IMG/VR virus record: IMGVR_UViG_3300037400_002947 | Coordinates: 54,999-118,998 of that record | Strand: one strand, 5' to 3' | From: a virus | Taxonomy: Duplodnaviria > Caudoviricetes | DNA: 64,000 nucleotides | In this document: piece by piece, positions 6,187-30,590 of the stretch | Layout of the letters: every line of letters starts with the position of its first letter | How positions within the stretch are numbered: position 1 is the first letter of the stretch | Translations under genes and position numbers: made by a program | Notes under the pieces: generated by a model | Seen by the model: the letters and a program-made list of their open reading frames with translations, nothing else | What the model was told of the DNA's origin: nothing | Databases searched by the model: none

Positions 6187-8217
6187 TTATATAGTTTTTC
6201 CGCCGTATGAGCCGCGGCGAATAGTTAATTGTTGCACCAAAGACTTGGAGTTGGTCTTTGGCTTTTGATTGAGAAGAAGTTTGCGCCGCTCTTGTGCAAG
6301 GCCGTAACTGGCCATTGCCAATGTATAACTGCGGTCGTCGTGTAGAACATGCTCTTTTTCAGGAGTGAGTTCAAAGCTATCTCTACCAGAGTCGCGCTTC
6401 TTTCGAATCATGTTCACGACCTCTTCCTTCATGGCGTCTATATTTGCAAGAGCCAACTCTTCTTGCCAAGTGAGCCTAATAGTCCTTGTATTAACCGACT
6501 GGACCTTCCCTAGCTCTTCTTTGAGCTGCTCTTCAAATTGTTCCTGATTCAGTTTCTTCTTTTTGAGTTCAGCAGAAATTCTTTCTCGCTCCTCATCAAG
6601 TAGCTTCTGATCTATATCAAAGACGGTAAGATATTGTTTGTTATCATATGTAGCCGTAAAACTAATCTTGTCCTGATTGAGCATTTCAATCATTGCTTCA
6701 TAAATAATAGATTTATAACCAGATGGAGAGAGAAGTCTAACCTTATCTACTGCGTTTGGAAACCTCGAAACATATTCGGAAGAATACTCTTTATCTATGA
6801 GTCCTCTATGAACAATGCCGTCGGCAGTTTCCCAATCTTGCATCAGGTAGTCTGCAATATTGACGCCGCCTCCGCCAGAACCAGCATCAATATAGACTCC
6901 AAGAATATTGCCATAAGCATCCGCTCCACCATTGTAGTCAAGTATCATCTGCTTAAGGTATTTAATCTGGTCTGGCGTTTGCATAGGAGATTTCGTCTTC
7001 TTACCAACGTCCATCAAATTGACACAGTTTACAATTCTGGCACGAAGATCTTCGCTGCCATCGACCTGTGTTACACTATACACCTCAAACACGGTGATTA
7101 CGGAGTTATCCATGCTTCTAGCCGGATCGTATGCCAGTATAAACTTCTTATCACCAGTATCATTATATAAAAGAGGTTTTCGAGTTTCTTCGTTTCTTGT
7201 AATAACACCGCGCTTAACAATGGCGTTGGTCCCGGCCTCAGTTGTGAATATACAATAATATTCTCTACGAGCCTTCTCAGGGTTGATTCTCATTTCTGAT
7301 TCCACCTGAGACTTTTGTAGAAGAGGAGCAATCACTTCTCCGTGTAGAGTCGGATGAAACGCTTGTTCGCAGTCAATATGAAGCACGCAATAATCAGGAT
7401 CTCCCTCGATTTGCTTTTTGGCGAAATCTCTATACAATTTAAAAAAGCGCATGTCCACAGAACTTGCGCTTCCTATATAAAACTTTTGGTTTGGAACATC
7501 AGTAGCGAAAGTGCGCTGTCTAATAGGATCAATTGATTTGCCAGAAGCATCTTTACCAGTACGCAGGTTTTTGTCGACGATGGCAAACGCACTGTAAACG
7601 TTCATCATCTCGTCTGAGAGATGCTGCGCCTCATCAAATATTACAGAGCCGCGCATTCCGCGCTTTTTGTCTATGTTGGAGTTCAATGTCCACGTAGCAC
7701 TTCCATTATAGCAGGAATACGTAAAGCCATTTGAGCCATGACTGAAACCATCTCCGGCAGCGTTCTTTATCTCGACTTCGTCCTTGAATATTTTTCCGGT
7801 CGACCCTTGAAACGTATCTATGTTATCATTGGCGAGTCTCTCAAGCGTCGTAAAGGTTTGCTCCGCCTGAGAGCCAGATCCGCTTGCAATATAACTCCAA
7901 AGATTGCACCACAGCATGTCCTTGCTCATTGTCTCTAGACCTATGACTGTCGACTTGCCGTAACCACGAGCACAGCACACAAGAACATTAGGACAATTCC
8001 AGGAGCGCTGAACAATCAGAGCTTGTCCATCAAGCAACTCGATATTAAACATGATGTCAATAAAACGAATCGGATTGCACTGAAAATATCTCTGGAGATT
8101 CGCAATGCTGACTAGAGAATCAATTTTTTTACTAGACATAATATAGTCTACAGGCTTAATAAAGACTCCATAGTCATTATAGAATTCCTCATCATAAGGA
8201 AGAATTATCTGACTCAT
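6187..8217 (-). CDS. terL: Terminase large subunit
   Basis: Walker A ARGYGKST, Walker B VIFDEA, nuclease motifs YDPARS and HDDRSY. Confidence 0.9.
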   Translation of the reverse strand: MSQIILPYDEEFYNDYGVFIKPVDYIMSSKKIDSLVSIANLQRYFQCNPIRFIDIMFNIELLDGQALIVQRSWNCPNVLVCCARGYGKSTVIGLETMSKDMLWCNLWSYIASGSGSQAEQTFTTLERLANDNIDTFQGSTGKIFKDEVEIKNAAGDGFSHGSNGFTYSCYNGSATWTLNSNIDKKRGMRGSVIFDEAQHLSDEMMNVYSAFAIVDKNLRTGKDASGKSIDPIRQRTFATDVPNQKFYIGSASSVDMRFFKLYRDFAKKQIEGDPDYCVLHIDCEQAFHPTLHGEVIAPLLQKSQVESEMRINPEKARREYYCIFTTEAGTNAIVKRGVITRNEETRKPLLYNDTGDKKFILAYDPARSMDNSVITVFEVYSVTQVDGSEDLRARIVNCVNLMDVGKKTKSPMQTPDQIKYLKQMILDYNGGADAYGNILGVYIDAGSGGGGVNIADYLMQDWETADGIVHRGLIDKEYSSEYVSRFPNAVDKVRLLSPSGYKSIIYEAMIEMLNQDKISFTATYDNKQYLTVFDIDQKLLDEERERISAELKKKKLNQEQFEEQLKEELGKVQSVNTRTIRLTWQEELALANIDAMKEEVVNMIRKKRDSGRDSFELTPEKEHVLHDDRSYTLAMASYGLAQERRKLLLNQKPKTNSKSLVQQLTIRRGSYGGKTI

Positions 8218-9493
8218 AGTCATTCTCCTCCTCGCCAGTAAATTCTATATCTCCGCTAAATACGGAATACAAGTCTCTAAGATTCTTAAGACTACCTTTT
8301 GGTTTGATTCCCTTTTCATCAAGATAGTCTTTAAGGTCAAGATTTTCTTTAAGTAGAATACGATTGATCTCTTTATAACTATCCTTCTCTTTGCGTAACC
8401 GCTGATTGGTCTCGCGCATGTTCGCAACAATGTCAGACCATTCCGATTCGTCAAGGGCAAGCTGTTTCATAATGGATGCGTCGCTGATTTCCTGCACCTG
8501 CTGCATTCCTTTGCAAGTAGCAACATCAAACCCATTCATCTCGCCTTCGCGAAGATTCAGATCTTTAATACGTTTAATTTTTCCAGTCCAGGTGTTCTCG
8601 CCTTTAACCTGACGTTTACTATTTTTTAAGCTTAGACAACTTTCCGCCGCAAGATTAGTAATCATACTTGTGATTTTCTGTTTAGAATCTTGCAGAGACT
8701 TGATGGTAGCAGAGTTGTCCTGCACCTCGTTTATATTCCCCATCAGTTTTGCCATCGTATCATCAATTTTCTGAAGCTGTAAAAAACCTCTGACAATCTG
8801 AATAGCAGAAGAGACGCGCATCATATCATCGTTGGCGTCTTCAGAAGCGTCCAGCATTCCAAGAAGCTGAGAGTATAAGAATGGCTGATCGCTGACTGGC
8901 TCTTTTTCAAACGGGTCATAGTCAAGCAGACGAATAACGTCTTCTTTATTCTTTATATAACTATCATACGTATCCATTCCGGCGTGTTCTTCGACTATCT
9001 CCTGTTCGGTTTTTTCATCCTCGTATTTAATCCGAACTTTAAACATGTCGGAATCTTTCCAACCAAGACCGTTGTATTGCCCCATTTGGATATTTTTCAT
9101 ATAGGCTCTATAGGCATTGGTCTTGACCTTGCCAGATGCCAGATTTTCACTTTCCTGAATACTTGCATTCCATACCGTCTCAATAAACGGCTTATCCAAA
9201 TATCTTAGGGCGAGCTGTGCAGATTCTTTGGTCGGCTCGTGAGAGTCACCAAACTTATCAACACGCTCCGCAATCTTTCGAGCGCATTCTTTACAAATCG
9301 GAGTAACGCCACCTTTGCACATAGGATCGGTACTCACATAAAACTTTGACCTATCCTTGATAGAATCGCACATCCGACAGTAAGCGCTTTCCTTCAGTTT
9401 CGCAATTTCCTCACGCATCTTTACGTTTTCGGCGCGAATCTGCGCAATCGGAACCTTCTTATCAGTGATAGGCTCTATTTTTTTTGTAGCCAT
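8192..9493 (-). CDS. Putative terminase small subunit with N-terminal Zn finger
   Basis: Start ATG 9493 (MATKKIEP) after AAGGAG; CxxC...CxxC near the N-terminus; immediately upstream of terL (SPbeta yonG position). Confidence 0.6.
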   Translation of the reverse strand: MATKKIEPITDKKVPIAQIRAENVKMREEIAKLKESAYCRMCDSIKDRSKFYVSTDPMCKGGVTPICKECARKIAERVDKFGDSHEPTKESAQLALRYLDKPFIETVWNASIQESENLASGKVKTNAYRAYMKNIQMGQYNGLGWKDSDMFKVRIKYEDEKTEQEIVEEHAGMDTYDSYIKNKEDVIRLLDYDPFEKEPVSDQPFLYSQLLGMLDASEDANDDMMRVSSAIQIVRGFLQLQKIDDTMAKLMGNINEVQDNSATIKSLQDSKQKITSMITNLAAESCLSLKNSKRQVKGENTWTGKIKRIKDLNLREGEMNGFDVATCKGMQQVQEISDASIMKQLALDESEWSDIVANMRETNQRLRKEKDSYKEINRILLKENLDLKDYLDEKGIKPKGSLKNLRDLYSVFSGDIEFTGEEENDYESDNSSL

Positions 9494-9519
9494 ATCATCT
9501 TTCTCCTTTTCTTTCCAAT

Positions 9520-9596
9520 TGCCCGCGGCAGGATTTGAACCTGTGAACCCCCGCTTTAGAAGGCGGTGCTCTAGACCGAACTGAGCTACGTCGGGC
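9520..9596 (-). tRNA. Atypical tRNA (Arg-TCT-like; 8-nt anticodon loop CTTCTAAA), possibly pseudo
   Basis: TAGCTCAGTTCGGTCTAGAGC D-arm, CAGG-TTCAAAT-CCTG T-arm, acceptor GCCCGACG/CGCGGGC with one bulge; no encoded CCA. Confidence 0.75.
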
Positions 9597-9670
9597 ACAT
9601 AGACCTGTCGCCATAATGGCACTCTAGGGTGGCAGGTAACCCTTTCCGGTTTAGTAGCTCCGGCAAGCTT

Positions 9671-10852
9671 TTATAATTGAATCGGATAAAACGCTTTTAT
9701 CCCATCGTCATTAATGACTGCAACCGCCTGTGAAGGCGAGCCAACAAGTCTATGCTCAATACAATAATTCGATCCACTCCCAGCAAATGTTCCGGACTGA
9801 ATAACCTTAACCCCACTTATTTCGGAATAAGCTGTACTGTGTCTATGCCCGATGACAATTGCATACGGGACTTCTCCAATCATCATAGTTAATTTCTGAA
9901 CACCAGAAGCATCGGCCGTGTCATAATCTCCGTGGCAAAGAATGAATTGCAGTCCACAAATATTAAAAAAGGCTATTGTTGGGTCATATTTACAATGATC
10001 GAAAAACTTAACATTCGACACATTAGCAAGTTTTGCCTTCGCATACCAGCAGACAATAGAGTCAAGCCGTTCGCCACGCATGACTTCATTTTTCTTTCCA
10101 AGGCGAGAATGATTGCCAGATACATCGTTTACATAGACAACATTTACCAGCTTGCTCATTTTGAATATAAATTCAGAAATAAGTTCGCTGACAGTCTGAA
10201 CTTGCTGTATAACATTTTCGCCGTTTTCAAGTATTGTCGTGTAATGAATGATTCCGTTAACAGAATCGCCAAGTAAAGCAATGTATGCTTTATCAACATC
10301 ATGCTTTTTCACAATGTCGCAAATCTGAAGATAATACTTGTCGAATGTTTCCTTGGCGATTTTTACATTATACTCGCCAAAAAAAGAATCACCCGTGTCC
10401 AGACCGAGATGAACGTCTGACAGACATATAAGAATGTCGTTAACGCCAGAAGAGGAGATAACTATATTAGAAGACTCATAGGGCGATGTTTCCCTGATAA
10501 GCGATTCAAGATAATCTAGCTTTTCTTCTATCCGTGCAGAATCGCGATTCTGTCTCTGCCAAGCGTTGCGCTCGTCTCTGAATTTTACTTTTTCACGTTC
10601 AAGCATTCTCCGCTGATTTTCCATATCCTTCAGCTGATCTTCAGATTCAGTGAACAATTTTTGATTAGCAACGAACATTTTCTGAAATGCAGCGTATTTT
10701 TTGCGATATGTGCTTTCTCCGTAGTCATTGCCCAGAAGCTCGTTTAGAATGTCAGCGACATCCTGCCACGATCCAATTATTTCCTTGTCTTTACAAATTC
10801 GAAAAATCAGTTCATCGTCTGACTCTCCAAGATATCTTTTGTATTCAGCCAT
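9671..10852 (-). CDS. Calcineurin-like metallophosphoesterase (SPbeta YonJ-like)
   Basis: Motifs SDVHLG, LLGD, GNHSR, CHGD, GHRH. Confidence 0.85.
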   Translation of the reverse strand: MAEYKRYLGESDDELIFRICKDKEIIGSWQDVADILNELLGNDYGESTYRKKYAAFQKMFVANQKLFTESEDQLKDMENQRRMLEREKVKFRDERNAWQRQNRDSARIEEKLDYLESLIRETSPYESSNIVISSSGVNDILICLSDVHLGLDTGDSFFGEYNVKIAKETFDKYYLQICDIVKKHDVDKAYIALLGDSVNGIIHYTTILENGENVIQQVQTVSELISEFIFKMSKLVNVVYVNDVSGNHSRLGKKNEVMRGERLDSIVCWYAKAKLANVSNVKFFDHCKYDPTIAFFNICGLQFILCHGDYDTADASGVQKLTMMIGEVPYAIVIGHRHSTAYSEISGVKVIQSGTFAGSGSNYCIEHRLVGSPSQAVAVINDDGIKAFYPIQL

Positions 10853-10871: not shown

Positions 10872-11502
10872 AATGCAGCATTTTATAACAGCCATAAATA
10901 GGATTTCTCCTTACAAGCAAATAACGTCGTAATATTCAGTCATGGTGTCAACAAGTCCGAGCCACGCCAGCGTCCCAGCGAGACTTCTTGCCGAACAAAC
11001 CAATCAACCGATGCAAAACACCAGTCAAACGATTCGCAAATCACCAAAGAGATTGATACTCTCAACTTTCACCCGTCATTCGGAAAGAAGTCATCCCAAT
11101 GACAAATGTGCTACACGTCATAATTTCCGTTGGTTGAGCTACTCGTCCGGCAAACAGTTCTTATAGTCGCATTTCTGCAACGTCACAACGGTAGTAGCGG
11201 CTTATTTGGATTTCCCTTACTTACCACTCCAACAGTTTTCCACACCGTTGGCATCAGGGTTGTTCTCACACAGTGAGCGTCTATTGTGCCGCCGAACTGA
11301 ATCCGACTTTTTACGGTCATATTTGTTTGTGCCAGAGCTTGGCTTTTGCGGTTTCCGCATTTCCTATACAGGCATCACTGCCACTCGGAGATCACCAACT
11401 CAAAGTATCCCATGAATCAACGACCCGTCATACGCTCTGCCTCGGCACGGTGACTAACCGATCTTCACCGAGGTATTAATGGATGTTATAAAATGCTGCA
11501 TT
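10872..11502 (-). ncRNA. Large structured ncRNA (~630 nt), ROOL-like
   Basis: Intergenic; perfect 19-bp inverted repeat at 10872-10890 and 11484-11502; GNRA-capped hairpins on the minus strand (GGCA-GTGA-TGCC, GTTGCA-GAAA-TGCGAC, AGGA-GAAA-TCCT); size and phage/tRNA context fit ROOL. Confidence 0.75.
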
Positions 11503-17073: not shown

Positions 17074-18237
17074 TTAATGATATTTCAATAAATAATCGTT
17101 GCTTACAGCCTTGAATGACTGCTTGCCGTCCATGCTGCGGAACACAATTCCTTCGCGCATGCCGTCGTATAGCTGGGACTTGCCGTCCGCCATTGCAACA
17201 ACAGCATCAACGTCGTCCGGCAGTTCAACGCCAAAATCAAGAATCGGCACACATGGAATTCCAAACCTGTCCATTACGCGCACCATCTCGACAGAGCTTA
17301 CACGACCACACGAAGAATAAATCAGATTAAACACAGCAAGCCGACGCTCGTGCAGTCCATATGTTGTTTTTTGAACGCCCTCTCCGTAAACTTCTCCCTG
17401 AATCGTAATATATGATTCGTTAGAATTCTCTTCGAGAAGCTTTCCAAGAACCTCGCGCATCTTGTACTTTTCAGCCATTTCGGTATAGATGTTCGTATCA
17501 TAGTAACAAGATTCTTTTCCGGTCTCGAAACAAACGTTGCGAGAGCACACGAGAAATTCCGGCTTGCTCCACACATGCTTGCCACGACGGATAGTAAATG
17601 TGCTGCTTGAGCCGTCAATCTTCTCTGTGGCAATCCAATGAGTGTCTCCGTGGAGAATATATGGTACGTTTTGGATTCGATCCTCGTCTGTTTTGCGCAC
17701 CCAGTCCGGCCATCCGTGATCCTTTTTCTTTTTGCCAAAAAACAGGAACAGCAGTTTCCTTCCCCAGGTCCTTTTCATCATCCACCGGAACGGCTGTTTG
17801 GCAAACAGCTTTCCGTGACGTTGTGCCATCTTTTTGTACTTGTCGCCAGAAGGAGCCTTGCGAATGTTGTCCTGCGGCTCGTAATATTTGACACCAAGTT
17901 TTTCGGTTACATAATCTCCGACGGCGCACGACGCAAGCTCCGGAAATTCTGAGAGCGGCATCAGCAGTCCTTGGGAAATAACTTTGCCTTTGCACATCCG
18001 CTGAGTCTTCACGCGGTATTTATACTTCTCGCAGAATGCGAAGCGCTCGTCGGTAGCGGGAAGGAGAGAGTCGATCTCAAAATATACGGCGGCGTCTCCG
18101 GCTCTCATTTCTTTACCAACGACGCAGTGCCAACCATTTACTGTGGCAAGAGCAATGCGGTCGTACCCTTCAATCGGCTCGACAGCATCGACAGTGACGA
18201 TGTATGCGAGTTCGCGCTCGCCTTTTTTGTTAAGCAT
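17074..18237 (-). CDS. ATP-dependent RNA ligase (DRB0094/Rnl5-like)
   Basis: N-terminal OB-like domain (YFEIDSLLP); motif I TEKIDGSS, IQGE, EGIVFR, SFKAVS. Confidence 0.85.
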   Translation of the reverse strand: MLNKKGERELAYIVTVDAVEPIEGYDRIALATVNGWHCVVGKEMRAGDAAVYFEIDSLLPATDERFAFCEKYKYRVKTQRMCKGKVISQGLLMPLSEFPELASCAVGDYVTEKLGVKYYEPQDNIRKAPSGDKYKKMAQRHGKLFAKQPFRWMMKRTWGRKLLFLFFGKKKKDHGWPDWVRKTDEDRIQNVPYILHGDTHWIATEKIDGSSSTFTIRRGKHVWSKPEFLVCSRNVCFETGKESCYYDTNIYTEMAEKYKMREVLGKLLEENSNESYITIQGEVYGEGVQKTTYGLHERRLAVFNLIYSSCGRVSSVEMVRVMDRFGIPCVPILDFGVELPDDVDAVVAMADGKSQLYDGMREGIVFRSMDGKQSFKAVSNDYLLKYH

Positions 18238-21476: not shown

Positions 21477-21715
21477 TCGTTCTCCATACTCTCCTGATTA
21501 AATCCGTAGCGCTTTTCAAGCTTCAGCCGCTCGTACGCATCGATCAGCTTGGTCGCCTGCTCCGCGCGCATCGTCGCCTCGCAGTACTGACAGCGCATGC
21601 ATTTCGAAAAATCCTTCTCCTTACATCTTAAGAACCAGATCGCAGCGGTCGGGTCGTAGCATCTGTAGTTGATGGTAAACCCAGATCTGGTGATAGTTCC
21701 TCCGCCCCGGCTCAT
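21473..21715 (-). CDS. Hypothetical Cys-containing protein
   Basis: 80 aa, coupled to both neighbours. Confidence 0.6.
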   Translation of the reverse strand: MSRGGGTITRSGFTINYRCYDPTAAIWFLRCKEKDFSKCMRCQYCEATMRAEQATKLIDAYERLKLEKRYGFNQESMENE

Positions 21716-22188
21716 CGGCCGTTCCTCCTAACTATGTATACTCGCTGAGGAACCCGCTCGGCAAACGCCAGAATGAGCGGCTCGACGGCACTCCAGTCGC
21801 CCCCGGCCAGTCCGCACCCCATTCCGTACGGGAATGCGACGACCTTCGAATGCTCAAGATTCTCGACGCAGAATTCGGCGAAAGCGTCGAGACACTTTTG
21901 AAGCTGTCGATAATTCGTATGGATTGCACCGCGACCAAAGCCGTACTGGGCGTACATGTTCACACACGTTCTGCCGTCACCTGTCTTGATGCAGCGGATC
22001 GTGCCGTACAGCTCGTCGGCTCCAAGAAGGCGGTACAGCCTGCGGTCGGTGTTCGCAACCTCCGGATATTTCTTTGCAATCTGTTTCGCCAGTCCGGCGC
22101 CCATCGTGCCGAAGCAGTTGGTCTGATGACAGAAGACGTCGAACCGGTTGTCTTTAACCAAATCGCCGTAAATATATTCAGCCTTCAC
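21712..22188 (-). CDS. Macro-domain protein (ADP-ribose hydrolase-like)
   Basis: GDL, HQTNCFGTMGAGLAKQI, FPYGMGCGLAGGDW. Confidence 0.88.
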   Translation of the reverse strand: MKAEYIYGDLVKDNRFDVFCHQTNCFGTMGAGLAKQIAKKYPEVANTDRRLYRLLGADELYGTIRCIKTGDGRTCVNMYAQYGFGRGAIHTNYRQLQKCLDAFAEFCVENLEHSKVVAFPYGMGCGLAGGDWSAVEPLILAFAERVPQRVYIVRRNGR

Positions 22189-22445
22189 CGCTTAACTCCT
22201 TTCATCCGCTCGCGAAGCTTCTCGCGCTGCTCGTCCGAAATCTTCCGCGGCGCTGAAATCTTTATATATGAGAGAGGGATGGTTGCAAAGACCGAGCCGT
22301 CCTCGTTATTAGTTAAGGTAACTTCTGCCGGATTTGCTTTGGCTAGCCTTCGCAGCCTGTTGATCCATTTCGTCTGCGAGACGGTTGCTGCGGCGCTGTC
22401 AGATCCGGTAATCCACTCAATTGCGTTTTCCTGACTTCGCTCCAT
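22185..22445 (-). CDS. Hypothetical protein, first gene of the leftward operon
   Basis: 86 aa, AAAGGAG RBS downstream of the promoter. Confidence 0.75.
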   Translation of the reverse strand: MERSQENAIEWITGSDSAAATVSQTKWINRLRRLAKANPAEVTLTNNEDGSVFATIPLSYIKISAPRKISDEQREKLRERMKGVKR

Positions 22446-22467
22446 ACAAATTCTCCTTTCTGAAACC

Positions 22468-22495
22468 AGTATACCAATAACAGTTATATTGTCAA
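22468..22495 (-). promoter_or_regulatory. Leftward sigma-A promoter overlapping the AATATAAC motif
   Basis: TTGACA-ATATAACTGTTATTGG-TATACT (16-bp spacer, extended TG). Confidence 0.8.
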
Positions 22496-22527
22496 GCGGC
22501 GGAGAAGCCGGGATGGGGGAGAGGAGA

Positions 22528-22875
22528 ATCTACTATTATATTATATAAATAATATATAGTAGTAATATTATATATAATAATATATTGAAGCCAGATAATT
22601 ATTAATAGAAGCCTATTAATATATTGAAGCTATATATTATATATAATAAATAGAAGCCAAATAGAAATTATATATGGAAGCCATATTGTAATATGTATTA
22701 ATACAATATTGCAGTATGGCTTTAATACTATTTTTATATATTGTATTAATACTATTATTCAGTATTGTTTTAATACAATACCGTTATATGTATTTATATC
22801 TATTAGAAAAGTATTTTATATTCAACATATTGTAGTTATATCTATATTGCTTACTACCATATAAAATACTTTTCG
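22528..22875. repeat. Extremely AT-rich tract with GAAGC(C) repeats and palindromes; candidate replication origin
   Basis: GAAGC at 22587, 22608, 22626, 22653, 22677; repeated palindromes TATTATATATAATA and GTATTAATAC; lies at the divergence point of the two arms. Confidence 0.55.
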
Positions 22876-23194
22876 TTTTGCCGATCTGATTTATCCCTCT
22901 GGCATTCAAATTTAATGATCAACTGTACTGAGTGTGATAGTACAGTATGACACGCGAAAATCAGGAATGATTACTGAGTTGTAATAATTATTGCAGTGTC
23001 GATGTGCCGGGGGAAGGAAGAATTTGAAGTCAGTGTGGGTGTGGAACACCCGTATGGTGGGGCAGAAAAAATGCCGACTTTTTAGGTTTAAAATACCCCC
23101 AAACTTTAGCACTTTAAAGTGCGCTTAAAGCCGCATAGATACTGGCAAAAATGAACATTTTTGACATTATTTCCAGCATATGTTTTTATATAAT

Positions 23195-23510
23195 TGTCCA
23201 AAGGGACAGGCGAACAGGAAACGGTCAGACCGCCCTGCTCGGAATATATCGAAGCGGAAACAGTCCGACTGCCCGTTTCACCTCTACCCGTCAACCAGTC
23301 ACCGTAGCACGCTACGAGTATGTCCTTTGACAGTCGAATAAAAGGTGGCACACGACCGGAAAAGTGCGCTCATTTTGCGGGATTTTTACGCAATGAGTCT
23401 GTGTAAACCTATGGCGGAAGTTCAGGAGAGTTCAGGGTAACCATAGTCTGTGAAGGGTGAAGTATGCGATGACCGCAGAATAATGACGGTGCAATTCCGT
23501 CCACGAGCCG
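23195..23510 (+). ncRNA. Structured non-coding leader upstream of the ribozyme
   Basis: Helices TGTCCAAAGGGACA/TGTCCTTTGACA, GAAACGG/CCGTTTC, CGTAGC/GCTACG, CTCATT/AATGAG, CTATGG/CCATAG and a T-loop hairpin GACGG-TGCAATT-CCGTC. Confidence 0.55.
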
Positions 23511-23514
23511 ATAG

Positions 23515-23569
23515 ATGCTAATGCTACCATTATGACGGTGACAAGTCCGTGTAAAAGCAGAGTCAGCAC
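23515..23569 (+). ncRNA. Twister self-cleaving ribozyme (P1 type)
   Basis: TGC-TAA-TGCT-ACC-attatg-ACGG-T-GAC-AAGT-CCGT-gtaaa-AGCA-GA-GTC-A-GCA: P1, P2, P4 and both pseudoknots (GAC/GTC, AC/GT) can pair. Confidence 0.85.
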
Positions 23570-23611
23570 AAAAATCATGTATCGCCCAAAATGGGCAGAA
23601 AGGGGGACATT

Positions 23612-24232
23612 ATGTCCAAAAACGCTAACATGAAATCCGCAGACCGTACCATGAACGAGAGAGTCAGCGAGTACGCTACCGTACGACTCAGCGACATCAC
23701 GGACAAAACGCGCCACAAGGCCGCCGTCGAAGCAATCGAGAACTCTATCAGAGGTCTCGAAAACTGCAAGGGTTCTGTGCTGTCGTCTGACGACATCGAC
23801 CTTGCCATTGCTGCGAAACGTGACGAACTTGTCAAACTTGAAGAGGACTACAAGGAAGCGCTCAAAAAGCGTGAGCGCTTTGTCTACACCAAGGAAGACA
23901 TCGAACTGTACAATGCGTACAAGAACAATGAGAATCTGGAGACCGCCCTGTATAATTGGGCAATGGCATGGAATCTCGATTTGTCTGGCACGAAACAGTT
24001 GAGCCAAATGGCAGTAGATGTCTCTGGCAAACAGGGCAAGGCGTCTGCCCGTACCATGATTAACACCGGATTCGGCACAATGACCAGAGACCGCAGTAAG
24101 CAGAACTTCTTAGACCTCGTATACGGTCTCATGACCGAGGCGTGCGTCAAGCAGGGTCTCAAAATGGACATTCCGGACGACATTCGTGTAGCTTATGCGC
24201 CGAAAAGGGCACAGAAAAAGGCTGACAAATAA
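23612..24232 (+). CDS. Hypothetical early protein, first rightward gene
   Basis: ATG 23612 after AAAGGGGG; followed by two hairpins. Confidence 0.75.
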   Translation: MSKNANMKSADRTMNERVSEYATVRLSDITDKTRHKAAVEAIENSIRGLENCKGSVLSSDDIDLAIAAKRDELVKLEEDYKEALKKRERFVYTKEDIELYNAYKNNENLETALYNWAMAWNLDLSGTKQLSQMAVDVSGKQGKASARTMINTGFGTMTRDRSKQNFLDLVYGLMTEACVKQGLKMDIPDDIRVAYAPKRAQKKADK

Positions 24233-24298
24233 TATCAGCCTTTCCGCATAGCATAGCGCATAGATTGGGGCGACAAGTGGCAGCTTGTCGCTCTTATT
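24217..24298 (+). terminator. Tandem hairpins/terminator after the first early gene
   Basis: AAAGGCTGA/TCAGCCTTT and GGGCGACAAG/CTTGTCGCTC-TTATT. Confidence 0.65.
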
Positions 24299-24337
24299 GT
24301 ATGCACTATCATTATATCACTACGAAAGGAGTATGCA

Positions 24338-24742
24338 ATGAGTAGAGGATGGTGTGCGGAAAAAATCCGCAAAGTCAAGATGTACGATGCGCAAATTGCC
24401 CGTCGTCAGGCAGATTCTGAGGTGTGGTGGGATCACGTCGAGGGTCGCAAAATCTTTCCGATGACCGCATCGTCGGAAGAGGAGTACGATGCGTTTCAAG
24501 AGGCACATCCGTTCACATCGCACGACAAGTGGGCCGTAACCGTAATGACTAAAGCCGGTGTGCATGTCAATATTGCGCCAAAACAGCGCAAGAAGCACGT
24601 TGGCTTGAGGTTTCCCGTATACTTCGACAACGGCTGCAGAGTGCTCTTTGACAACGTCGACGCCGCTCTTGAACGGCTGTGCTGCGACGAGCACGCCGTC
24701 AAAATGTGGGACGGCACAACCAAGACATATCTGACGAAATAA
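24338..24742 (+). CDS. Hypothetical protein
   Basis: 134 aa, AAAGGAG RBS. Confidence 0.7.
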   Translation: MSRGWCAEKIRKVKMYDAQIARRQADSEVWWDHVEGRKIFPMTASSEEEYDAFQEAHPFTSHDKWAVTVMTKAGVHVNIAPKQRKKHVGLRFPVYFDNGCRVLFDNVDAALERLCCDEHAVKMWDGTTKTYLTK

Positions 24743-24770
24743 GCACAGATTCGAGAGGGGGAGTATAACT

Positions 24771-24938
24771 ATGAAGCGCTTCATCTTAAAGACGCTGAAC
24801 TGGACCGCTGGCATAACGCTTGCGATTTGCGCATGTAGCATGGACTCTGAGGATTTGCGTCCGTTTGCAATTGCCGCCGTAATTTCGGTCGCATGGCTTG
24901 CGCTGTCGTACTACGCCAACTACGGTCGCAGAGAATGA
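24771..24938 (+). CDS. Small membrane protein (55 aa, not in ORF track)
   Basis: GGGGAG RBS; two hydrophobic stretches. Confidence 0.6.
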   Translation: MKRFILKTLNWTAGITLAICACSMDSEDLRPFAIAAVISVAWLALSYYANYGRRE

Positions 24939-24961
24939 CAATATAACATACGAGGTGCGAT

Positions 24962-25192
24962 ATGACTGCGACTATTCTTGCTGTGGCTATGTTTATGCTG
25001 TTTGCAAAGCCTGCATCCGTTGTCGAGGTGAACGCTCTCACAGATACTGTTGTTTATGAGGATTCGTGCGGACATATGTTCGCAACCACATATAACGGCA
25101 CGTCTGTGGGCGATGACGCTGTACTTCTTATGAACGGGAACTGCACAGTATCACCAAACGACGACATCATTCTAGGTATTAAAGTTAGGTAA
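24962..25192 (+). CDS. Small exported/membrane-anchored protein
   Basis: Hydrophobic N-terminus; GAGGTG RBS. Confidence 0.6.
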   Translation: MTATILAVAMFMLFAKPASVVEVNALTDTVVYEDSCGHMFATTYNGTSVGDDAVLLMNGNCTVSPNDDIILGIKVR

Positions 25193-25198
25193 GCAAAA

Positions 25199-25417
25199 AT
25201 GAACGATGAGCATATTCTGATTCGTCCGTGCGTAAACGGACTACAAATCTACCATGAGCGAAACCGCGAATGGTATCTCATCCAGAAGGGAAACCTTCTC
25301 CCGTATATTGAGCACGAAGAGTTCGACCCGTTCTGGCATGTCTACGTGAAGGTAAGGGAGTATCTCCGCGAAAATCAGATCAACGCATATGACAAAGCGG
25401 TAAAAATCTTTAAATAG
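25199..25417 (+). CDS. Hypothetical protein
   Basis: 72 aa within the operon. Confidence 0.55.
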   Translation: MNDEHILIRPCVNGLQIYHERNREWYLIQKGNLLPYIEHEEFDPFWHVYVKVREYLRENQINAYDKAVKIFK

Positions 25418-25420
25418 TGC

Positions 25421-25449
25421 TTTACAATATAACTGCAAACATCTACAAT
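25421..25449 (+). promoter_or_regulatory. Sigma-A promoter overlapping the AATATAAC motif
   Basis: TTTACA-17 bp-TACAAT; the spacer begins ATATAACTG as in the promoters at 22495 and 63351. Confidence 0.6.
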
Positions 25450-25468
25450 AAGAAAGGAAACGAAAACC

Positions 25469-25633
25469 ATGATTCGAATCGAAATCACGCCTTGCGACGT
25501 CGGCGAATACAAGTTCCGCGCCGCCAAGGCAAAGCTGTTTCACAACGGAAACTGGTATCACGTCGGTTTCCCGAAGTTCTTCGCAACGCTTGCGGAAGCT
25601 CTGGCGTACTCTCGAAGTGCGTCCAAGGCATGA
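25469..25633 (+). CDS. Small hypothetical protein (54 aa, not in ORF track)
   Basis: AGAAAGGA RBS; MIRIEITPCDV... Confidence 0.55.
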   Translation: MIRIEITPCDVGEYKFRAAKAKLFHNGNWYHVGFPKFFATLAEALAYSRSASKA

Positions 25634-25728
25634 CAATATAACGGATTCTTGCCAGACCACGCTCATAAGCGAAACGGTTTGTGGGTGTGAGTGTAGCAAT
25701 AATTGCTTCTAAGCGAAAGGAGACCACT

Positions 25729-25875
25729 ATGAGCGAAATGATCAAAATGTATAACTATGTCTGCGAAATGCGCGACGAGAACGCCGCACAGGCAACGGAA
25801 CAGCAGAAGGCTGCATACTACATGTATGCGCTCCTTGCGAGAGCATACGCAAGGGAAATCGAGGCGATGGCGTAA
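25729..25875 (+). CDS. Small hypothetical protein
   Basis: AAAGGAG RBS; MSEMIKMYNY... Confidence 0.6.
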   Translation: MSEMIKMYNYVCEMRDENAAQATEQQKAAYYMYALLARAYAREIEAMA

Positions 25876-25888
25876 GCGAAGGGAGCTG

Positions 25889-26371
25889 ATGCAAATGAAA
25901 ATAAACATGTACCGCTCATGCCTTGAGCGGAACGGCTATGTCTCTGTCGTAGCCGAAAAGGGAAAGCAGTACGTTTGCGACGGGCGGAAGCAGTTCAGCA
26001 ACCCGGAGATCATAGCAAACTTCTGCCGAACGCAACTGAAAATTGACGAGTGCGCCGAGGAGCACGTTTTCGTGTTCGCGCTCAACAACCGAAACCATCT
26101 GATGGGTGTGTTCGAAGCGTCGATAGGAACCGCGGACGGAAGCATAGTCCCCGTAAGGGAGATCCTGCGCAACCTGCTTGCGCTCAACGCTGTGCGGTTT
26201 GCCTTGGTTCACAATCATCCTACAGGATATCCGTTTCCGTCTGGCGATGACGTCGCTGTAACGGAACGGCTGAAGCGGGCAGGAGAGGATGTCGGTGTCG
26301 GAATCCTCGACCACGTAATTATAGGAAATTACGGAAACTATTACAGTTTCCAGGAAGAAGGGGTGATGTAA
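25889..26371 (+). CDS. radC: RadC-like JAB-domain protein
   Basis: EEHVFV, HNHPTG...PSGDD, ILDHVIIG. Confidence 0.85.
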   Translation: MQMKINMYRSCLERNGYVSVVAEKGKQYVCDGRKQFSNPEIIANFCRTQLKIDECAEEHVFVFALNNRNHLMGVFEASIGTADGSIVPVREILRNLLALNAVRFALVHNHPTGYPFPSGDDVAVTERLKRAGEDVGVGILDHVIIGNYGNYYSFQEEGVM

Positions 26372-26599
26372 ATGACCGACGAAAGGGCGGTGCGCTACGC
26401 AGAACAGCACGGCATCATCGAGTACCATCTGGAAGAAGGGAAGATGATTTTCTACACTTCCTTCCCGATGGAGCACATGACATACAAGGCAACGGTTGAT
26501 TTAAATCAACTGACGGAAACAAGAGAACCGCTTGACAGATACTACGTCGCATACGTAGACCTCGTCGAAGGCAAATATGCAGCCAACTATATGGCGTAA
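26372..26599 (+). CDS. Hypothetical protein
   Basis: 75 aa abutting radC. Confidence 0.6.
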   Translation: MTDERAVRYAEQHGIIEYHLEEGKMIFYTSFPMEHMTYKATVDLNQLTETREPLDRYYVAYVDLVEGKYAANYMA

Positions 26600-26625
26600 T
26601 CACAGGATAAAAAGGAAACGATACT

Positions 26626-27915
26626 ATGACAAATGAACTTCTGAAACAGCTTGCGCTTGAAGCGCGCGAACTCACCGGAGAGGCAACAAAGACGGCCGCA
26701 ACGCCAAAGGCAAAGCCGAGCGTCGAATTCACAATCACGCTCGCCGAGTATCCTGACCTCATCGTCACTCGCAAACAGCCGAAGGTAACGAAGCACCTCG
26801 TAATCCTGTTCACTGCCGGAACTGCGTTCATCAAAACGGAAAGCACAGGTAAATCTGTCCTACTTACGCCACAGAACTATGCGGCCTTTGTATCTGGCAT
26901 GGATGATCTCGCCCTTCCGGACGGTTACTGGACGGCGAGATTGAAGAAGGGAAAGGCTTTCGGCGAACTCCTGTGCGACGCAATAGGCGACAAAGTGGTC
27001 TGCGAAGCGGCAAAGCGTGGTTACCTGAATGAGTTCGGCTGCATCGACACGTACGTTGGGGGAAATCTATATAGTGTGTTTAAGCATATCCCGAAACTCC
27101 TTGAGGAGTTCCATGACAAACCGAAATGCATGGCACTTATGAAGAATAACTGGATTTTCTGCGCCGACATTGTTCACCGCTTCGGCATTCAGAACGCAAG
27201 GGACTTCATGAACAGCTTCGAGGAATCGCTTCTTGTGCCACCCGAAAATCGTTGGAACGCATTGGAGCGCGACGCAATAAACTTCGGCGAAAACGCCGTG
27301 ATTGCCTACAACGGAAACAAGAACAGAGACAGCTGGAGAGAGCAGTACTCTGCGATTCCGGCATACAAGATGACGTACGACTCTTTTAAGAACTACGTAC
27401 TTTATTCCTCTGTGCGATTTGGCTACGGAGACAGCATGAAGAGCTTCTTCCGTGAGTGGGAAGATACCCTGTATATGCAGAATCAGATTTACGGCAAGGT
27501 AAAGGAAAAGTATCCGGATAACCTGCCGACATACCACAATCAGCTTGCGTATAAGGCACGGCTGATGCGTGAAGAGATTGACGAACGCAACTTTGCGAAG
27601 CAGGTCGAGGTCGCAAAGGCATACGAGGGAAGCGTCGGCGACTACGTATTCCTTGCGCCGAAACAGAAGCAGGATTTCTACGACGAAGCGACCGCTCAGG
27701 CGAACTGCCTTGCAAGCTACATCAGGTCCTTCACGGACGGCAGATGTATCATCCTGTTCATGCGCAGAACAAGTGAACCGGAACGCTCATACATCACCAT
27801 CGAGGTTTCGAACGGAATCGTCCGGCAGGCGAAGCTCGCCTTTAACAAGAATCCGGATCGGGCCACAAGAGAACTCATTGACGCTTATGTTGCGATGAAA
27901 GCCGCAGAAGCATAA
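26626..27915 (+). CDS. PcfJ-like domain protein
   Basis: C-terminal KYPDNL..YH, EATAQANCLASY, ILFMRR..P...YITIEV. Confidence 0.7.
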   Translation: MTNELLKQLALEARELTGEATKTAATPKAKPSVEFTITLAEYPDLIVTRKQPKVTKHLVILFTAGTAFIKTESTGKSVLLTPQNYAAFVSGMDDLALPDGYWTARLKKGKAFGELLCDAIGDKVVCEAAKRGYLNEFGCIDTYVGGNLYSVFKHIPKLLEEFHDKPKCMALMKNNWIFCADIVHRFGIQNARDFMNSFEESLLVPPENRWNALERDAINFGENAVIAYNGNKNRDSWREQYSAIPAYKMTYDSFKNYVLYSSVRFGYGDSMKSFFREWEDTLYMQNQIYGKVKEKYPDNLPTYHNQLAYKARLMREEIDERNFAKQVEVAKAYEGSVGDYVFLAPKQKQDFYDEATAQANCLASYIRSFTDGRCIILFMRRTSEPERSYITIEVSNGIVRQAKLAFNKNPDRATRELIDAYVAMKAAEA

Positions 27916-27957
27916 GCAGAGCATAACAATATAACATATAAAGAAAGGAAAACAACC

Positions 27958-29694
27958 ATGACAAAAACAGAAACAATCAACGAAATGATCAAATTCCTCA
28001 GCCGCTACGAGTACGAGGACGGATACAACTACACGCCGACCGAGTACGGCTGCGGTGTCATCTTCGACACCGAGATGCGTAACAAGGGAGCGCTCATCTC
28101 GAAGCTTGAGAAGCATCCGCGCTACAACGGACGCTTCCAGATTGTGCTCGACGAGAGCTTCCACCGCGACGTCGACCGCTGTGCTGTCAATAGATTTAAA
28201 GATTACATCTCGGGTTTCACGGTGAAAAGTTTCCATTACACCTTTGTACAGGGCGAAGTAGTCCGCGTCAAGAGCGAAATCCCCGTCAAACCCAGCAACT
28301 GGGTCGAGCCGATGGATGATTGGGTTGGAAAGGAAGTGGTTACGATTGACGACGGGAATACTTCTGTCCGGTGCAAGCTTGTCGATGACCCTGACACTTC
28401 AACATGGGCAGAGTCATGGTGGTTCCAGATCGACACGCTTGAGCGCCTTGACGGAAGTAGCTATGTTACGGAAAGCGCCGACAAGAAGATAACCAGAGAC
28501 GACTGGTACTTCGTCTGCGACCTCATCGATGATGGGCAGTACCTGTCTCCGGAAATGACCGAGAAGGCAAACGAACGTTTCGACTGGCTCCGTGCGCACT
28601 CCGGTCAGAAAATGAGCCGCATCGTCAAGAAGATCTGCGACCACTTCGGAATCTCGAAGGATGGCGCATGGAATCGGCAGTACACGCGGTTCGCCGACGC
28701 CTGCAATCCGCTCGAAGTTAAGACCTGGACAATTATCTCTTGGCATCCGGTTGACTACTGGGCAATGTCGTTCGGCAATTCGTGGACGTCTTGCCATTCC
28801 GTCGACAAGACCGACCTCAACGGAGTCTACTCAGGCTCTTATCACGGGTGCTATTCCGGCGGAACGGAAAGCTACATGCTCGACCCGTCGTCCGTGGTCG
28901 TCTACGTGGTCGACCGCAGTTACGAAGGGAACGAGTTCGAGCTTCAGCCGAAGGTGCTGCGGCAGATGTTCCACATCGCCGAGGACGGAACGTCCTTTGT
29001 TCAGGGTCGGCTGTATCCGCAGGACAACGACTGCGGCTCGAAAGAGAAGTACGACAAGATGAGAGCCATTATGCAGAGAGTCATCTCTGAATGCTTCGGC
29101 ACCCTGAATTACTGGGACGTCAAGAAGGGAACCAGCACATGCTCCAGAGCAATCTGTTCCTGCGGTGTCCACTACCGTGATTACGAGTACTTCGATAACT
29201 GCACGCTCTCGACCTTAAAGGAAGGATACACCGGAGCCTGCATCACAGTCGGTCACGACCCGATCTGCCCGAACTGCGGCGAAGAGCACGGTGACGAGGA
29301 GTGCGTCCAGTGCTCGGACTGCCGCGAAGAGGGACCGCGCTGTGAAGAGTGCGGCGATCCGGTTGATTTGGACGGAAATGGAATCCGCACCGCCGATGAC
29401 CACTACTTCTGCAGCACATACTGCGCAGAGCGGGCAGGCTATGTCTGGTGCTCTAACGACGAAGAGTGGCACTACAACAACAACGAGGTGTGCTATGACG
29501 ACTGGCTTGGCGAGTATGTCTATGACTACTACGAGGATTTCGTAAGAACGGAAGACGGTCATACATATCTGGATGCGGATAATGCCGAGGCTGACGGGTA
29601 CCGCTACGTCGAAGGAGACGGCTGGTATTATGTGGACGAAGTTAAATGGAACGAAGAAACATGCGAATACGAACTCAGCGAGGAGGTGGCGTAA
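27958..29694 (+). CDS. Large hypothetical protein with Cys-rich repeated C-terminus
   Basis: 578 aa; MSFGNSWTSCH and QGRLYP core; CxxC repeats. Confidence 0.75.
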   Translation: MTKTETINEMIKFLSRYEYEDGYNYTPTEYGCGVIFDTEMRNKGALISKLEKHPRYNGRFQIVLDESFHRDVDRCAVNRFKDYISGFTVKSFHYTFVQGEVVRVKSEIPVKPSNWVEPMDDWVGKEVVTIDDGNTSVRCKLVDDPDTSTWAESWWFQIDTLERLDGSSYVTESADKKITRDDWYFVCDLIDDGQYLSPEMTEKANERFDWLRAHSGQKMSRIVKKICDHFGISKDGAWNRQYTRFADACNPLEVKTWTIISWHPVDYWAMSFGNSWTSCHSVDKTDLNGVYSGSYHGCYSGGTESYMLDPSSVVVYVVDRSYEGNEFELQPKVLRQMFHIAEDGTSFVQGRLYPQDNDCGSKEKYDKMRAIMQRVISECFGTLNYWDVKKGTSTCSRAICSCGVHYRDYEYFDNCTLSTLKEGYTGACITVGHDPICPNCGEEHGDEECVQCSDCREEGPRCEECGDPVDLDGNGIRTADDHYFCSTYCAERAGYVWCSNDEEWHYNNNEVCYDDWLGEYVYDYYEDFVRTEDGHTYLDADNAEADGYRYVEGDGWYYVDEVKWNEETCEYELSEEVA

Positions 29695-30590
29695 TGAAGT
29701 ACAAAAACTTTATCAAACTTTGCAGAATGTCTCAGGAAGAACTGCGGATTCACCTTGCGGAACAGCTTGCGCTATATGGATATCTTCCGGTAATCGGCGA
29801 CGGATTTGTGTACGCAAAGGGAGATGTGTGCGACGTCCTGCTCACAGCGCATCTTGATACCGTCCATCAGGAAAAGCCGAAAGACATCGTGATCAAGAAG
29901 GGAACTATCTCGTCTCCACAGGGAATAGGCGGTGATGACAGATGTGGAATTTACATCATCCTTCGAATCTTAAGCGAAACAGATTACAGACCAAGCATCC
30001 TGTTCTGTGAGGACGAGGAGATCGGCGGCGTAGGCTCGTCGAAGTTCGTAGACTCAGACTACATCACCGACCTGTCGCTTATGAAATTCCTTGTTGAGAT
30101 CGACCGTCATGGAAACAACGATGCGGTGTTCTACTCCTGCGACAATCCGGACTTTACAGACTTCATTCTGGACACGACCGGATACAAAGAGAACTGGGGA
30201 ACGTTTTCTGACATCGGCAACCTGTCTCCGGCGAGCGGTGCGGCCTCGGTGAATCTCTCGTGCGGATATTACAAAGAGCACACAAAGGAAGAGTACGTCG
30301 TTTATGACGAGATGATGCACACGAAGAATGTGGTTGTGAAGCTGCTCAAGGCGGCGAAGTCGTGTGACTTCTTTGAGTACATCGAAGAGGAAATCACATG
30401 GTCGACGAGTCCGAAGACATACGGATACAGCATGGAACAGCAGGTATGGATTATGTATCAGGACGGCGGACAGGATCTTGAGGAGTTCTACACCGGAAGC
30501 AGTATGTACGAGGCGTTCGGGATGTTCTTCTATGACCATCCACACCTCAGATTCAATGACATTCTCGACTACGACGTATATCTCGTATGA
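29694..30590 (+). CDS. M20/M28-family zinc peptidase
   Basis: AHLDTVH, GGDDRCG, DEEIG, IDR, GYYKEHT. Confidence 0.85.
   Translation: MKYKNFIKLCRMSQEELRIHLAEQLALYGYLPVIGDGFVYAKGDVCDVLLTAHLDTVHQEKPKDIVIKKGTISSPQGIGGDDRCGIYIILRILSETDYRPSILFCEDEEIGGVGSSKFVDSDYITDLSLMKFLVEIDRHGNNDAVFYSCDNPDFTDFILDTTGYKENWGTFSDIGNLSPASGAASVNLSCGYYKEHTKEEYVVYDEMMHTKNVVVKLLKAAKSCDFFEYIEEEITWSTSPKTYGYSMEQQVWIMYQDGGQDLEEFYTGSSMYEAFGMFFYDHPHLRFNDILDYDVYLV

Follow-up and report, generated by a model that had tools for sequence, protein, structure and literature searches.

The element described here has its closest known counterpart in the type-P1 twister ribozyme (RF03160; Roth et al. 2014 as reviewed in PMC5408937 and PMC6154101), with which it shares the order of P1, the U|A cleavage site, P2, P4 and the L4 loop, the two pseudoknots T1 and T2, the conserved AA, AAG, UAAA and GA, and the placement of its termini in P1. 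It departs from the Rfam consensus in the sequences of T1 and T2, where the changes are compensated, in having neither a P3 nor a proper P0, and in a score that lies below threshold. P0, P3 and P5 occur in 21%, 78% and 1% of twisters and all are optional (PMC6154101; PMC5408937), so that their absence has no bearing on membership of the class; P1 itself is dispensable for cleavage (PMC5408937). The reaction leaves a 2',3'-cyclic phosphate and a 5'-OH (PMC8782182, PMC6154101), and in the rice ribozyme the general base has been assigned to G45 and the general acid to N3 of the adenine 3' of the cut, A7 (PMC6154101). That twisters occur near phage genes is already established: many bacterial examples lie among them, with a function that is largely elusive, and a role in processing has been suggested (PMC6765202). 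What twisters do in bacteria and phages is an open question (PMC6765202, PMC5408937). A second point of comparison is the glmS ribozyme of 5' UTRs in Gram-positive bacteria (PMC6765202), likewise a self-cleaving mRNA leader whose cut yields a message with a 5'-OH end. It differs in needing a metabolite cofactor and in being tied to one gene, whereas twister is ligand-free and nothing at the locus described below suggests that the cut is regulated.

The sequence examined here is IMG/VR virus record IMGVR_UViG_3300037400_002947 (Duplodnaviria; Caudoviricetes), which is 119 kb long and estimated to be 72% complete. The window, by which we mean the whole 64-kb stretch of DNA that was analysed, is the right-hand part of that record (record positions 54,999-118,998). 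According to the ORF maps, a leftward block of genes ends at 22445 and a rightward block begins at 23591 or 23612, and the twister forms the right edge of the non-coding gap of ~1.15 kb that separates them (22446-23611), ahead of the first rightward gene as the original prediction had placed it. The leftward arm encodes a large DNA methyltransferase, a macro-domain protein, a dUTPase, an RNA ligase, a ClpP-like protease and a ROOL RNA, and the rightward arm, which the twister precedes, encodes a RadC-like repair protein, methyltransferases, recombinases and an HNH endonuclease, together with a primase, a DNA polymerase and proteins resembling Sak4 and DnaB (the latter a helicase). The first rightward gene (23612-24232, + strand) encodes 206 aa from ATG 23612, 4 nt upstream of which a direct reading finds a Shine-Dalgarno-like G-rich run (23602-23607, + strand); an in-frame alternative, ATG 23591, has no Shine-Dalgarno sequence. 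Searches of Pfam, PHROG and Atlas returned no family match for the product. No phage record matched 22001-30000 in a blastn search, protein-guided scans of viral contigs and metagenomes recovered no relative of the gene downstream of the twister, and a protein-guided scan of viral contigs recovered none of the RadC-like gene.

The gap between the arms contains no credible ORF, since the small ORFs present have implausible-looking translations and no PHROG or family matches, and a search of the window with all Rfam families found no match in the RNA upstream of the twister. Between the divergent blocks there is a 350-nt stretch of 18-23% GC (22520-22870), within which lie four repeats spaced by 24 nt (22694-22813) and four or five repeats with a GAAGCC core (22575-22687), and the gap also holds a perfect 16-nt inverted repeat (22806-22821 with 22859-22874). 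The AT-rich repeats at 22520-22870 may be origin iterons or operator sites. An origin-derived primer RNA was also considered and rejected, because a 2',3'-cyclic phosphate end cannot be extended.

The twister itself spans 53 nt (23516-23568, + strand), as delimited by a full-length RF03160 match and by manual reading. The 5' strand of P1 (23516-23519), which ends in U23519, the nucleotide 5' of the scissile bond, faces 23565-23568; three base pairs form between 23516-23518 and 23566-23568, and U23519-A23565 provides an optional fourth. Alignment to the UAA of the model puts the predicted cleavage site between U23519 and A23520, with A23521 following. P2 consists of four base pairs (23522-23525 with 23556-23559) and is followed directly by the 5' half of T2 (23526-23527), which pairs with 23545-23546 and has an A-U pair in place of the consensus G-C. 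A 7-nt linker (23528-23534) occupies the place of the optional P3, which is deleted in the model alignment. Manual reading, model and computed fold all yield P4 (23535-23538 with 23547-23550), the two strands of which enclose the 8-nt loop L4 (23539-23546, the whole hairpin thus running from 23535 to 23550). L4 holds both pseudoknot partners and the conserved AAG; its T1 half (23540-23542) is a compensated variant of the consensus triplet that makes three Watson-Crick pairs with 23562-23564. The segment 23552-23561, comprising the UAAA at 23552-23555, the 3' strand of P2 and then G23560 and A23561, is identified by the identity line of the model alignment, and the 3' half of T1 and the 3' strand of P1 complete the element (23562-23568; manual reading, model and alignment). 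We take G23560, the G just after P2, to be the equivalent of G45 in the rice twister construct, and A23520 to be that of its general-acid adenine, A7.

Every unpaired nucleotide that is conserved in the class is intact, and none of the 16 pairs of the helices and pseudoknots is broken. AA, CC, CGGU, CAAG, CCG, GUAAA and GAG are all retained on the identity line of the alignment to the model. Where the element differs from the consensus at conserved positions, it does so at four pseudoknot positions only, and each of these changes is compensated on the partner strand. The element therefore has what defines the class, namely P1, P2 and P4, T1 and T2, a U|A step in the P1-P2 junction, of a less conserved U and a highly conserved A, and the roughly ten strongly conserved nucleotides of L1 and L4, among them the catalytic G. 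As to the optional stems, P3 and P5 are absent, and at the place of P0 there is only a weak and displaced hairpin. Direct reading of the DNA bears out each of the elements that the original prediction had assigned, including the compensated variant of T2, and the model alignment supports its cleavage site; the cut, which had been put ~90 nt upstream of ATG 23612, lies 92 nt from it, and 43 nt separate the end of P1 from the same codon.

At the Rfam gathering threshold for twister-P1 (67.2 bits) no twister is reported in the window. With permissive filters, all 68 positions of RF03160 align, with P3 deleted, at 38.4 bits, for which the E-value is 3.7e-7 when 301 nt are searched, 8e-5 for the 64-kb window and all 4227 families, and 3.6e-8 for this one family and the 119-kb genome. 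The search with this model had been proposed as a check on the ribozyme, the lack of any hit being taken to speak against it, and what it returned is a full-length match. A gathering threshold is a matter of curation, not of biology. When Rfam was run on 20 loci of relatives (described below), the 19 twister-P1 matches scored between 39.5 and 63.2 bits, and none of the 19 reached 67.2. The lowest of these values belongs to the copy in L010, which has the same two pseudoknot variants and also lacks P3, and which at 39.5 bits stands close to the 38.4 bits of the window copy. Because all 19 of the other phage twisters that were scored fall short as well, the sub-threshold score stems from the model. 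Pseudoknots are outside what the covariance model scores, and the compensated T1 and T2 are for that reason additional and independent support. The thermodynamic fold is unremarkable (z -0.56), as expected for a short pseudoknotted 53-mer; the minimum free energy fold of the precursor nonetheless retains P1, three of the four pairs of P2, and P4, and that of the 3' product retains P2 and P4. A second covariance model, trained on phage twisters, finds a single site in the 119-kb genome, the window copy being part of its training set, and neither this model nor that of Rfam finds a further twister in the genome.

Relatives were collected with patterns derived from the window twister, the first of which fixed the letters of its pseudoknots and left the stems free. 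This pattern occurs in four other viral contigs and in seven bacterial genomes (five Ruminococcus, one Clostridia and one Chloroflexi MAG), and 11 of the 12 copies have the full twister layout, in which P1, P2 and P4 are altered with pairing kept. In the copy on the Chloroflexi MAG contig (L007, 144-200, + strand), the 3' strand of P1 has been lost and P2 contains one mismatch; to judge from its sequence this copy is probably a dead twister. Scans in which one pseudoknot, T1 or T2, was also left free gave 66 and 36 viral loci, adding ~90 viral loci to those already found, so that overall the twister core is seen in ~100 other viral contigs and in Ruminococcus and Clostridia prophages. An exact-core pattern of the version in the window had no match in metagenomes. 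In the 67 distinct copies first parsed, the T1 triplets that had been left free always pair, in seven combinations, and the free T2 base tracks its partner, U occurring with A and C with G.

To what extent the family covaries was assessed in an alignment of 65 copies, with controls in which the partners were slid by 1-3 columns and with 500 shuffles. Because the sampling was pattern-derived and a filter demanded pairing in P2, independent weight lies only in P1, the outer P4 pairs, T1 and T2. With the pseudoknots included, 93.8% of cells are paired as against 14.6-40.5% with slid partners, and none of the 500 shuffles reaches any of the five measures used. T1, T2 and P4 are 99.6-100% paired across the 65 copies, with many double-sided changes. 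T1 is paired throughout, one of its pairs being CG in 31 copies, GC in 29 and UA in five and the next AU in 57, UA in four, GC in two, and CG and GU in one each; the T2 pair (44 AU, 18 GC, 3 GU) is likewise never unpaired. The outer P4 pair covaries as well (38 AU, 10 GC, 6 GU, 5 CG, 5 UA). In P2, column 12/85 has 42 AU, 17 GC, 5 UA and 1 CG, a pairing that the filter imposed. P1 occurs in two registers, for which reason a count by columns finds only 74% of it paired; when each copy is scored in its own register, at least 3 bp form in 61 of the 65 copies, with highly varied sequences.

The relatives also share a genomic setting. Of the 36 loci with 1.5 kb of sequence to either side of the twister, 32 have flanking ORFs predominantly on its strand (p 2e-6). 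A same-strand ORF terminates no more than 80 nt upstream of the twister in 45 of 64 relatives (median 33 nt), and in 44 of the 64 a start codon preceded by a Shine-Dalgarno sequence follows within 60 nt downstream (median 37 nt). In most copies a stop codon, P0 hairpin, twister and the ribosome-binding site that follows all fit into ~125 nt, an arrangement which points to mRNA processing between genes. The window copy, with 43 nt, has the typical downstream spacing, but no ORF lies upstream of it within ~1.1 kb. It has the catalytic core, the co-orientation and the ~40 nt to the next Shine-Dalgarno sequence and start codon in common with the 64 intercistronic twisters of phages and prophages, which usually sit ~33 nt past an upstream stop codon and have a strong GC hairpin abutting P1, and unlike them it heads a gene block after a 1.15-kb non-coding gap, with a hairpin that is weak and displaced.

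The hairpin of the relatives is evident from the 40 nt 5' of P1, which fold with a mean of -11.95 kcal/mol as against -5.06 in control windows; 67% of these folds lie below the 5th percentile of the controls (p 9e-27), and the stem sequences are unrelated. The possibility that this is a new element was rejected, as P0 is a described optional stem (PMC6154101, PMC5408937), and most likely the hairpin abutting P1 in relatives is just that stem. In Ruminococcus the copies sit in Mu-like prophages, after the gene for a MuB-like transposition ATPase and before Gam-like early genes. The hairpin-plus-twister module keeps this position in L006, L008, L010, L011 and L012 (Ruminococcus and Clostridia MAGs), where the MuB-like ATPase gene is sometimes followed by a DUF6906 gene, and the conserved position could serve as a test bed. 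Several twisters may also occur within a few kb, as in L062 (620-674, 2912-2977 and 3947-4081), L032 (1071-1139 and 1294-1362) and L024 (2304-2370 and 2364-2449), in which the two twisters are on opposite strands and overlap at their ends. In L062 there is, besides, a RAGATH-4-like RNA that at 73.3 bits falls short of its threshold.

Upstream of the window twister there are two features of interest, one inside the other. A weak 5-bp hairpin (23485-23501, + strand; -6.7 kcal/mol) ends 13 nt 5' of P1 and appears terminator-like when read on the minus strand; in comparison with the hairpin of the relatives, which abuts P1 and is much stronger, it is at best a poor counterpart of P0. Around it, 23463-23511 (+ strand) looks like a decayed, partial tandem copy of the twister, without the UAA, UAAA and GAG, as suggested by a 12-nt repeat (D8) and by local alignment to the twister (score 33 against 15.7 +/- 3.3, with 1 of 2000 shuffles as high); the hairpin falls where it mimics P4 and L4 of this copy. 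Neither the Rfam nor the phage-trained covariance model matches at 23463-23511. If it is what it looks like, then twisters can die in this region. Further upstream, the original prediction is not supported in one respect, the ~325-nt upstream RNA that cleavage was to release. That length assumed a start near 23195, where the spacer between TTGACA and TATAAT is 22 nt against a range of 16-18 nt, and a promoter scan made no sigma-70 call for such an RNA. The 325 nt in question (23195-23519) are no better folded than shuffled sequences (z +0.86).

Taken as a whole, these observations are in our view probably best explained by a functional type-P1 twister that cuts the rightward transcript and has a role in mRNA processing. 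Membership of the class, the intactness of the conserved residues, the covariation throughout the family, the co-orientation with the genes and the typical spacing to the start codon are all computed from the sequences; we infer that the whole element is transcribed, that it cleaves in vivo and which way any effect on stability or translation would go. As a rightward transcript into the block of replication and DNA-metabolism genes is made, the RNA would fold into P1, P2 and P4 and be locked by T1 and T2. With G23560 serving as the general base and A23520 as the general acid, the 2'-OH of U23519 would then attack its own 3' phosphate, and by the chemistry of the class the upstream product would be a non-coding RNA with a 2',3'-cyclic phosphate end. 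The downstream product would be an mRNA that opens with a 5'-OH at A23520 and with the compact, 49-nt body of the ribozyme, past which it is 43 nt to the first start codon of the gene block. Most likely the role would be one of processing, in which the coding message is freed from a long and variable leader and gains a fixed, structured 5' end without a phosphate. Were transcription to start downstream of 23520, the twister would not be made intact.

Such an end may stabilise, insulate or destabilise the message. A 5'-OH end can escape 5'-phosphate-dependent decay, and the 5'-OH product of glmS cleavage is a target of RNase J1. In Gram-positive hosts, the cleaved glmS mRNA is degraded by cellular RNases (PMC6765202), a precedent by which the twister cut could lower expression instead of protecting the message.

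The points that speak against a functional twister are the score below threshold, a P1 of only 3-4 bp, the absence of P3 and the weak and displaced P0-like hairpin. All of them would be understandable if the element were a twister by descent that is now inactive, a relic kept by chance in the long non-coding gap. Decayed copies do exist in this family, as L007 with its broken P1 and P2 mismatch shows, and a copy that looks clearly dead lies directly upstream. However, the distance between 38.4 and 67.2 bits loses its force once 19 of 19 other phage twisters are found below the Rfam threshold too, and L010, which looks active with the same pseudoknot variants and without P3, scores much the same; the conserved unpaired nucleotides have, moreover, been kept, together with 16 of 16 pairs, and we regard a relic as quite unlikely. 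The resemblance could in principle be due to chance, or the DNA could have another purpose such as that of a leftward promoter, for which there is a weak promoter-like match of 9 out of 12 on the minus strand (23544-23515) that overlaps the twister. Yet promoter-like matches are not above the level of shuffles (4 found against 5.0 expected), the model E-value of 8e-5 takes no account of a further five pseudoknot pairs, and near-identical cores with covarying stems recur in many unrelated phages, all of which makes this reading extremely improbable. It is effectively refuted by the E-value, by the pairing of pseudoknots that had been left free and by the covariation.

It is also conceivable that the twister is active and that it serves chiefly to define the 3' terminus of a non-coding RNA that is transcribed upstream, from the AT-rich repeats, rather than to shape the mRNA. 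Its position invites the idea, since it stands at the end of a 1.15-kb non-coding gap with repeat arrays and has no upstream ORF, unlike 45 of the 64 relatives, and since the strong hairpin that abuts P1 in the relatives would sit at the 3' end of the upstream product. At this locus, however, there is only a weak hairpin at a distance of 13 nt from P1, the upstream 325 nt are not unusually structured and match no Rfam family, and the spacing to the downstream start codon is typical; such a job is in our estimation unlikely. A more elaborate proposal, to which we would give only a slender chance, is that the twister and the dead tandem copy together define the 3' end of an RNA of several hundred nucleotides with its own role at the switch into the replication genes. 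This RNA would be transcribed out of the AT-rich (origin- or operator-like) repeats and would have a cyclic-phosphate end, and the ends made by the ribozyme would possibly be substrates of the RNA ligase and end-healing enzymes of the phage.

The window copy looks genuine, but it is an ordinary addition to a class of ribozyme whose frequency in phages is well known, and nothing in these results should surprise a specialist. Its modest value lies in being a clean case of a single ribozyme that heads a block of replication genes and would allow active and dead versions to be compared. More useful than the element are three side results: the Rfam threshold missed every phage twister that was scored, the pseudoknots covary freely in phages, and the compact arrangement of most copies between genes points to mRNA processing.

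The same phage carries other RNA-related features. An RNA ligase (17074-18237, - strand; PF09414 with a PHA02142 OB-fold), a macro-domain protein (21712-22188, - strand) and a metallophosphoesterase-like protein (9671-10852, - strand) are all encoded in the window, a set of the RNA-repair type, for which cyclic-phosphate and 5'-OH ends could in principle be substrates. A full-length ROOL RNA (10881-11496, - strand; RF03087, 308.6 bits against a gathering score of 99.1) lies in the leftward arm between the metallophosphoesterase-like gene and that of the ClpP-like protease. A tRNA-like element (9519-9597, - strand) scores 31.4 bits with the Rfam tRNA model, just over threshold, and overlaps the start of the long ORF 8192-9622; it is also called by ARAGORN, which gives a two-base 'anticodon' that it leaves undetermined. 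In the part of the phage outside the window there is a probable group I intron (L108, 16383-16676, - strand, corresponding to G000:C1:36383-36676), which covers the full length of the model at 47.0 bits against a gathering score of 50. A second tRNA lies at L109 7512-7596 (- strand).
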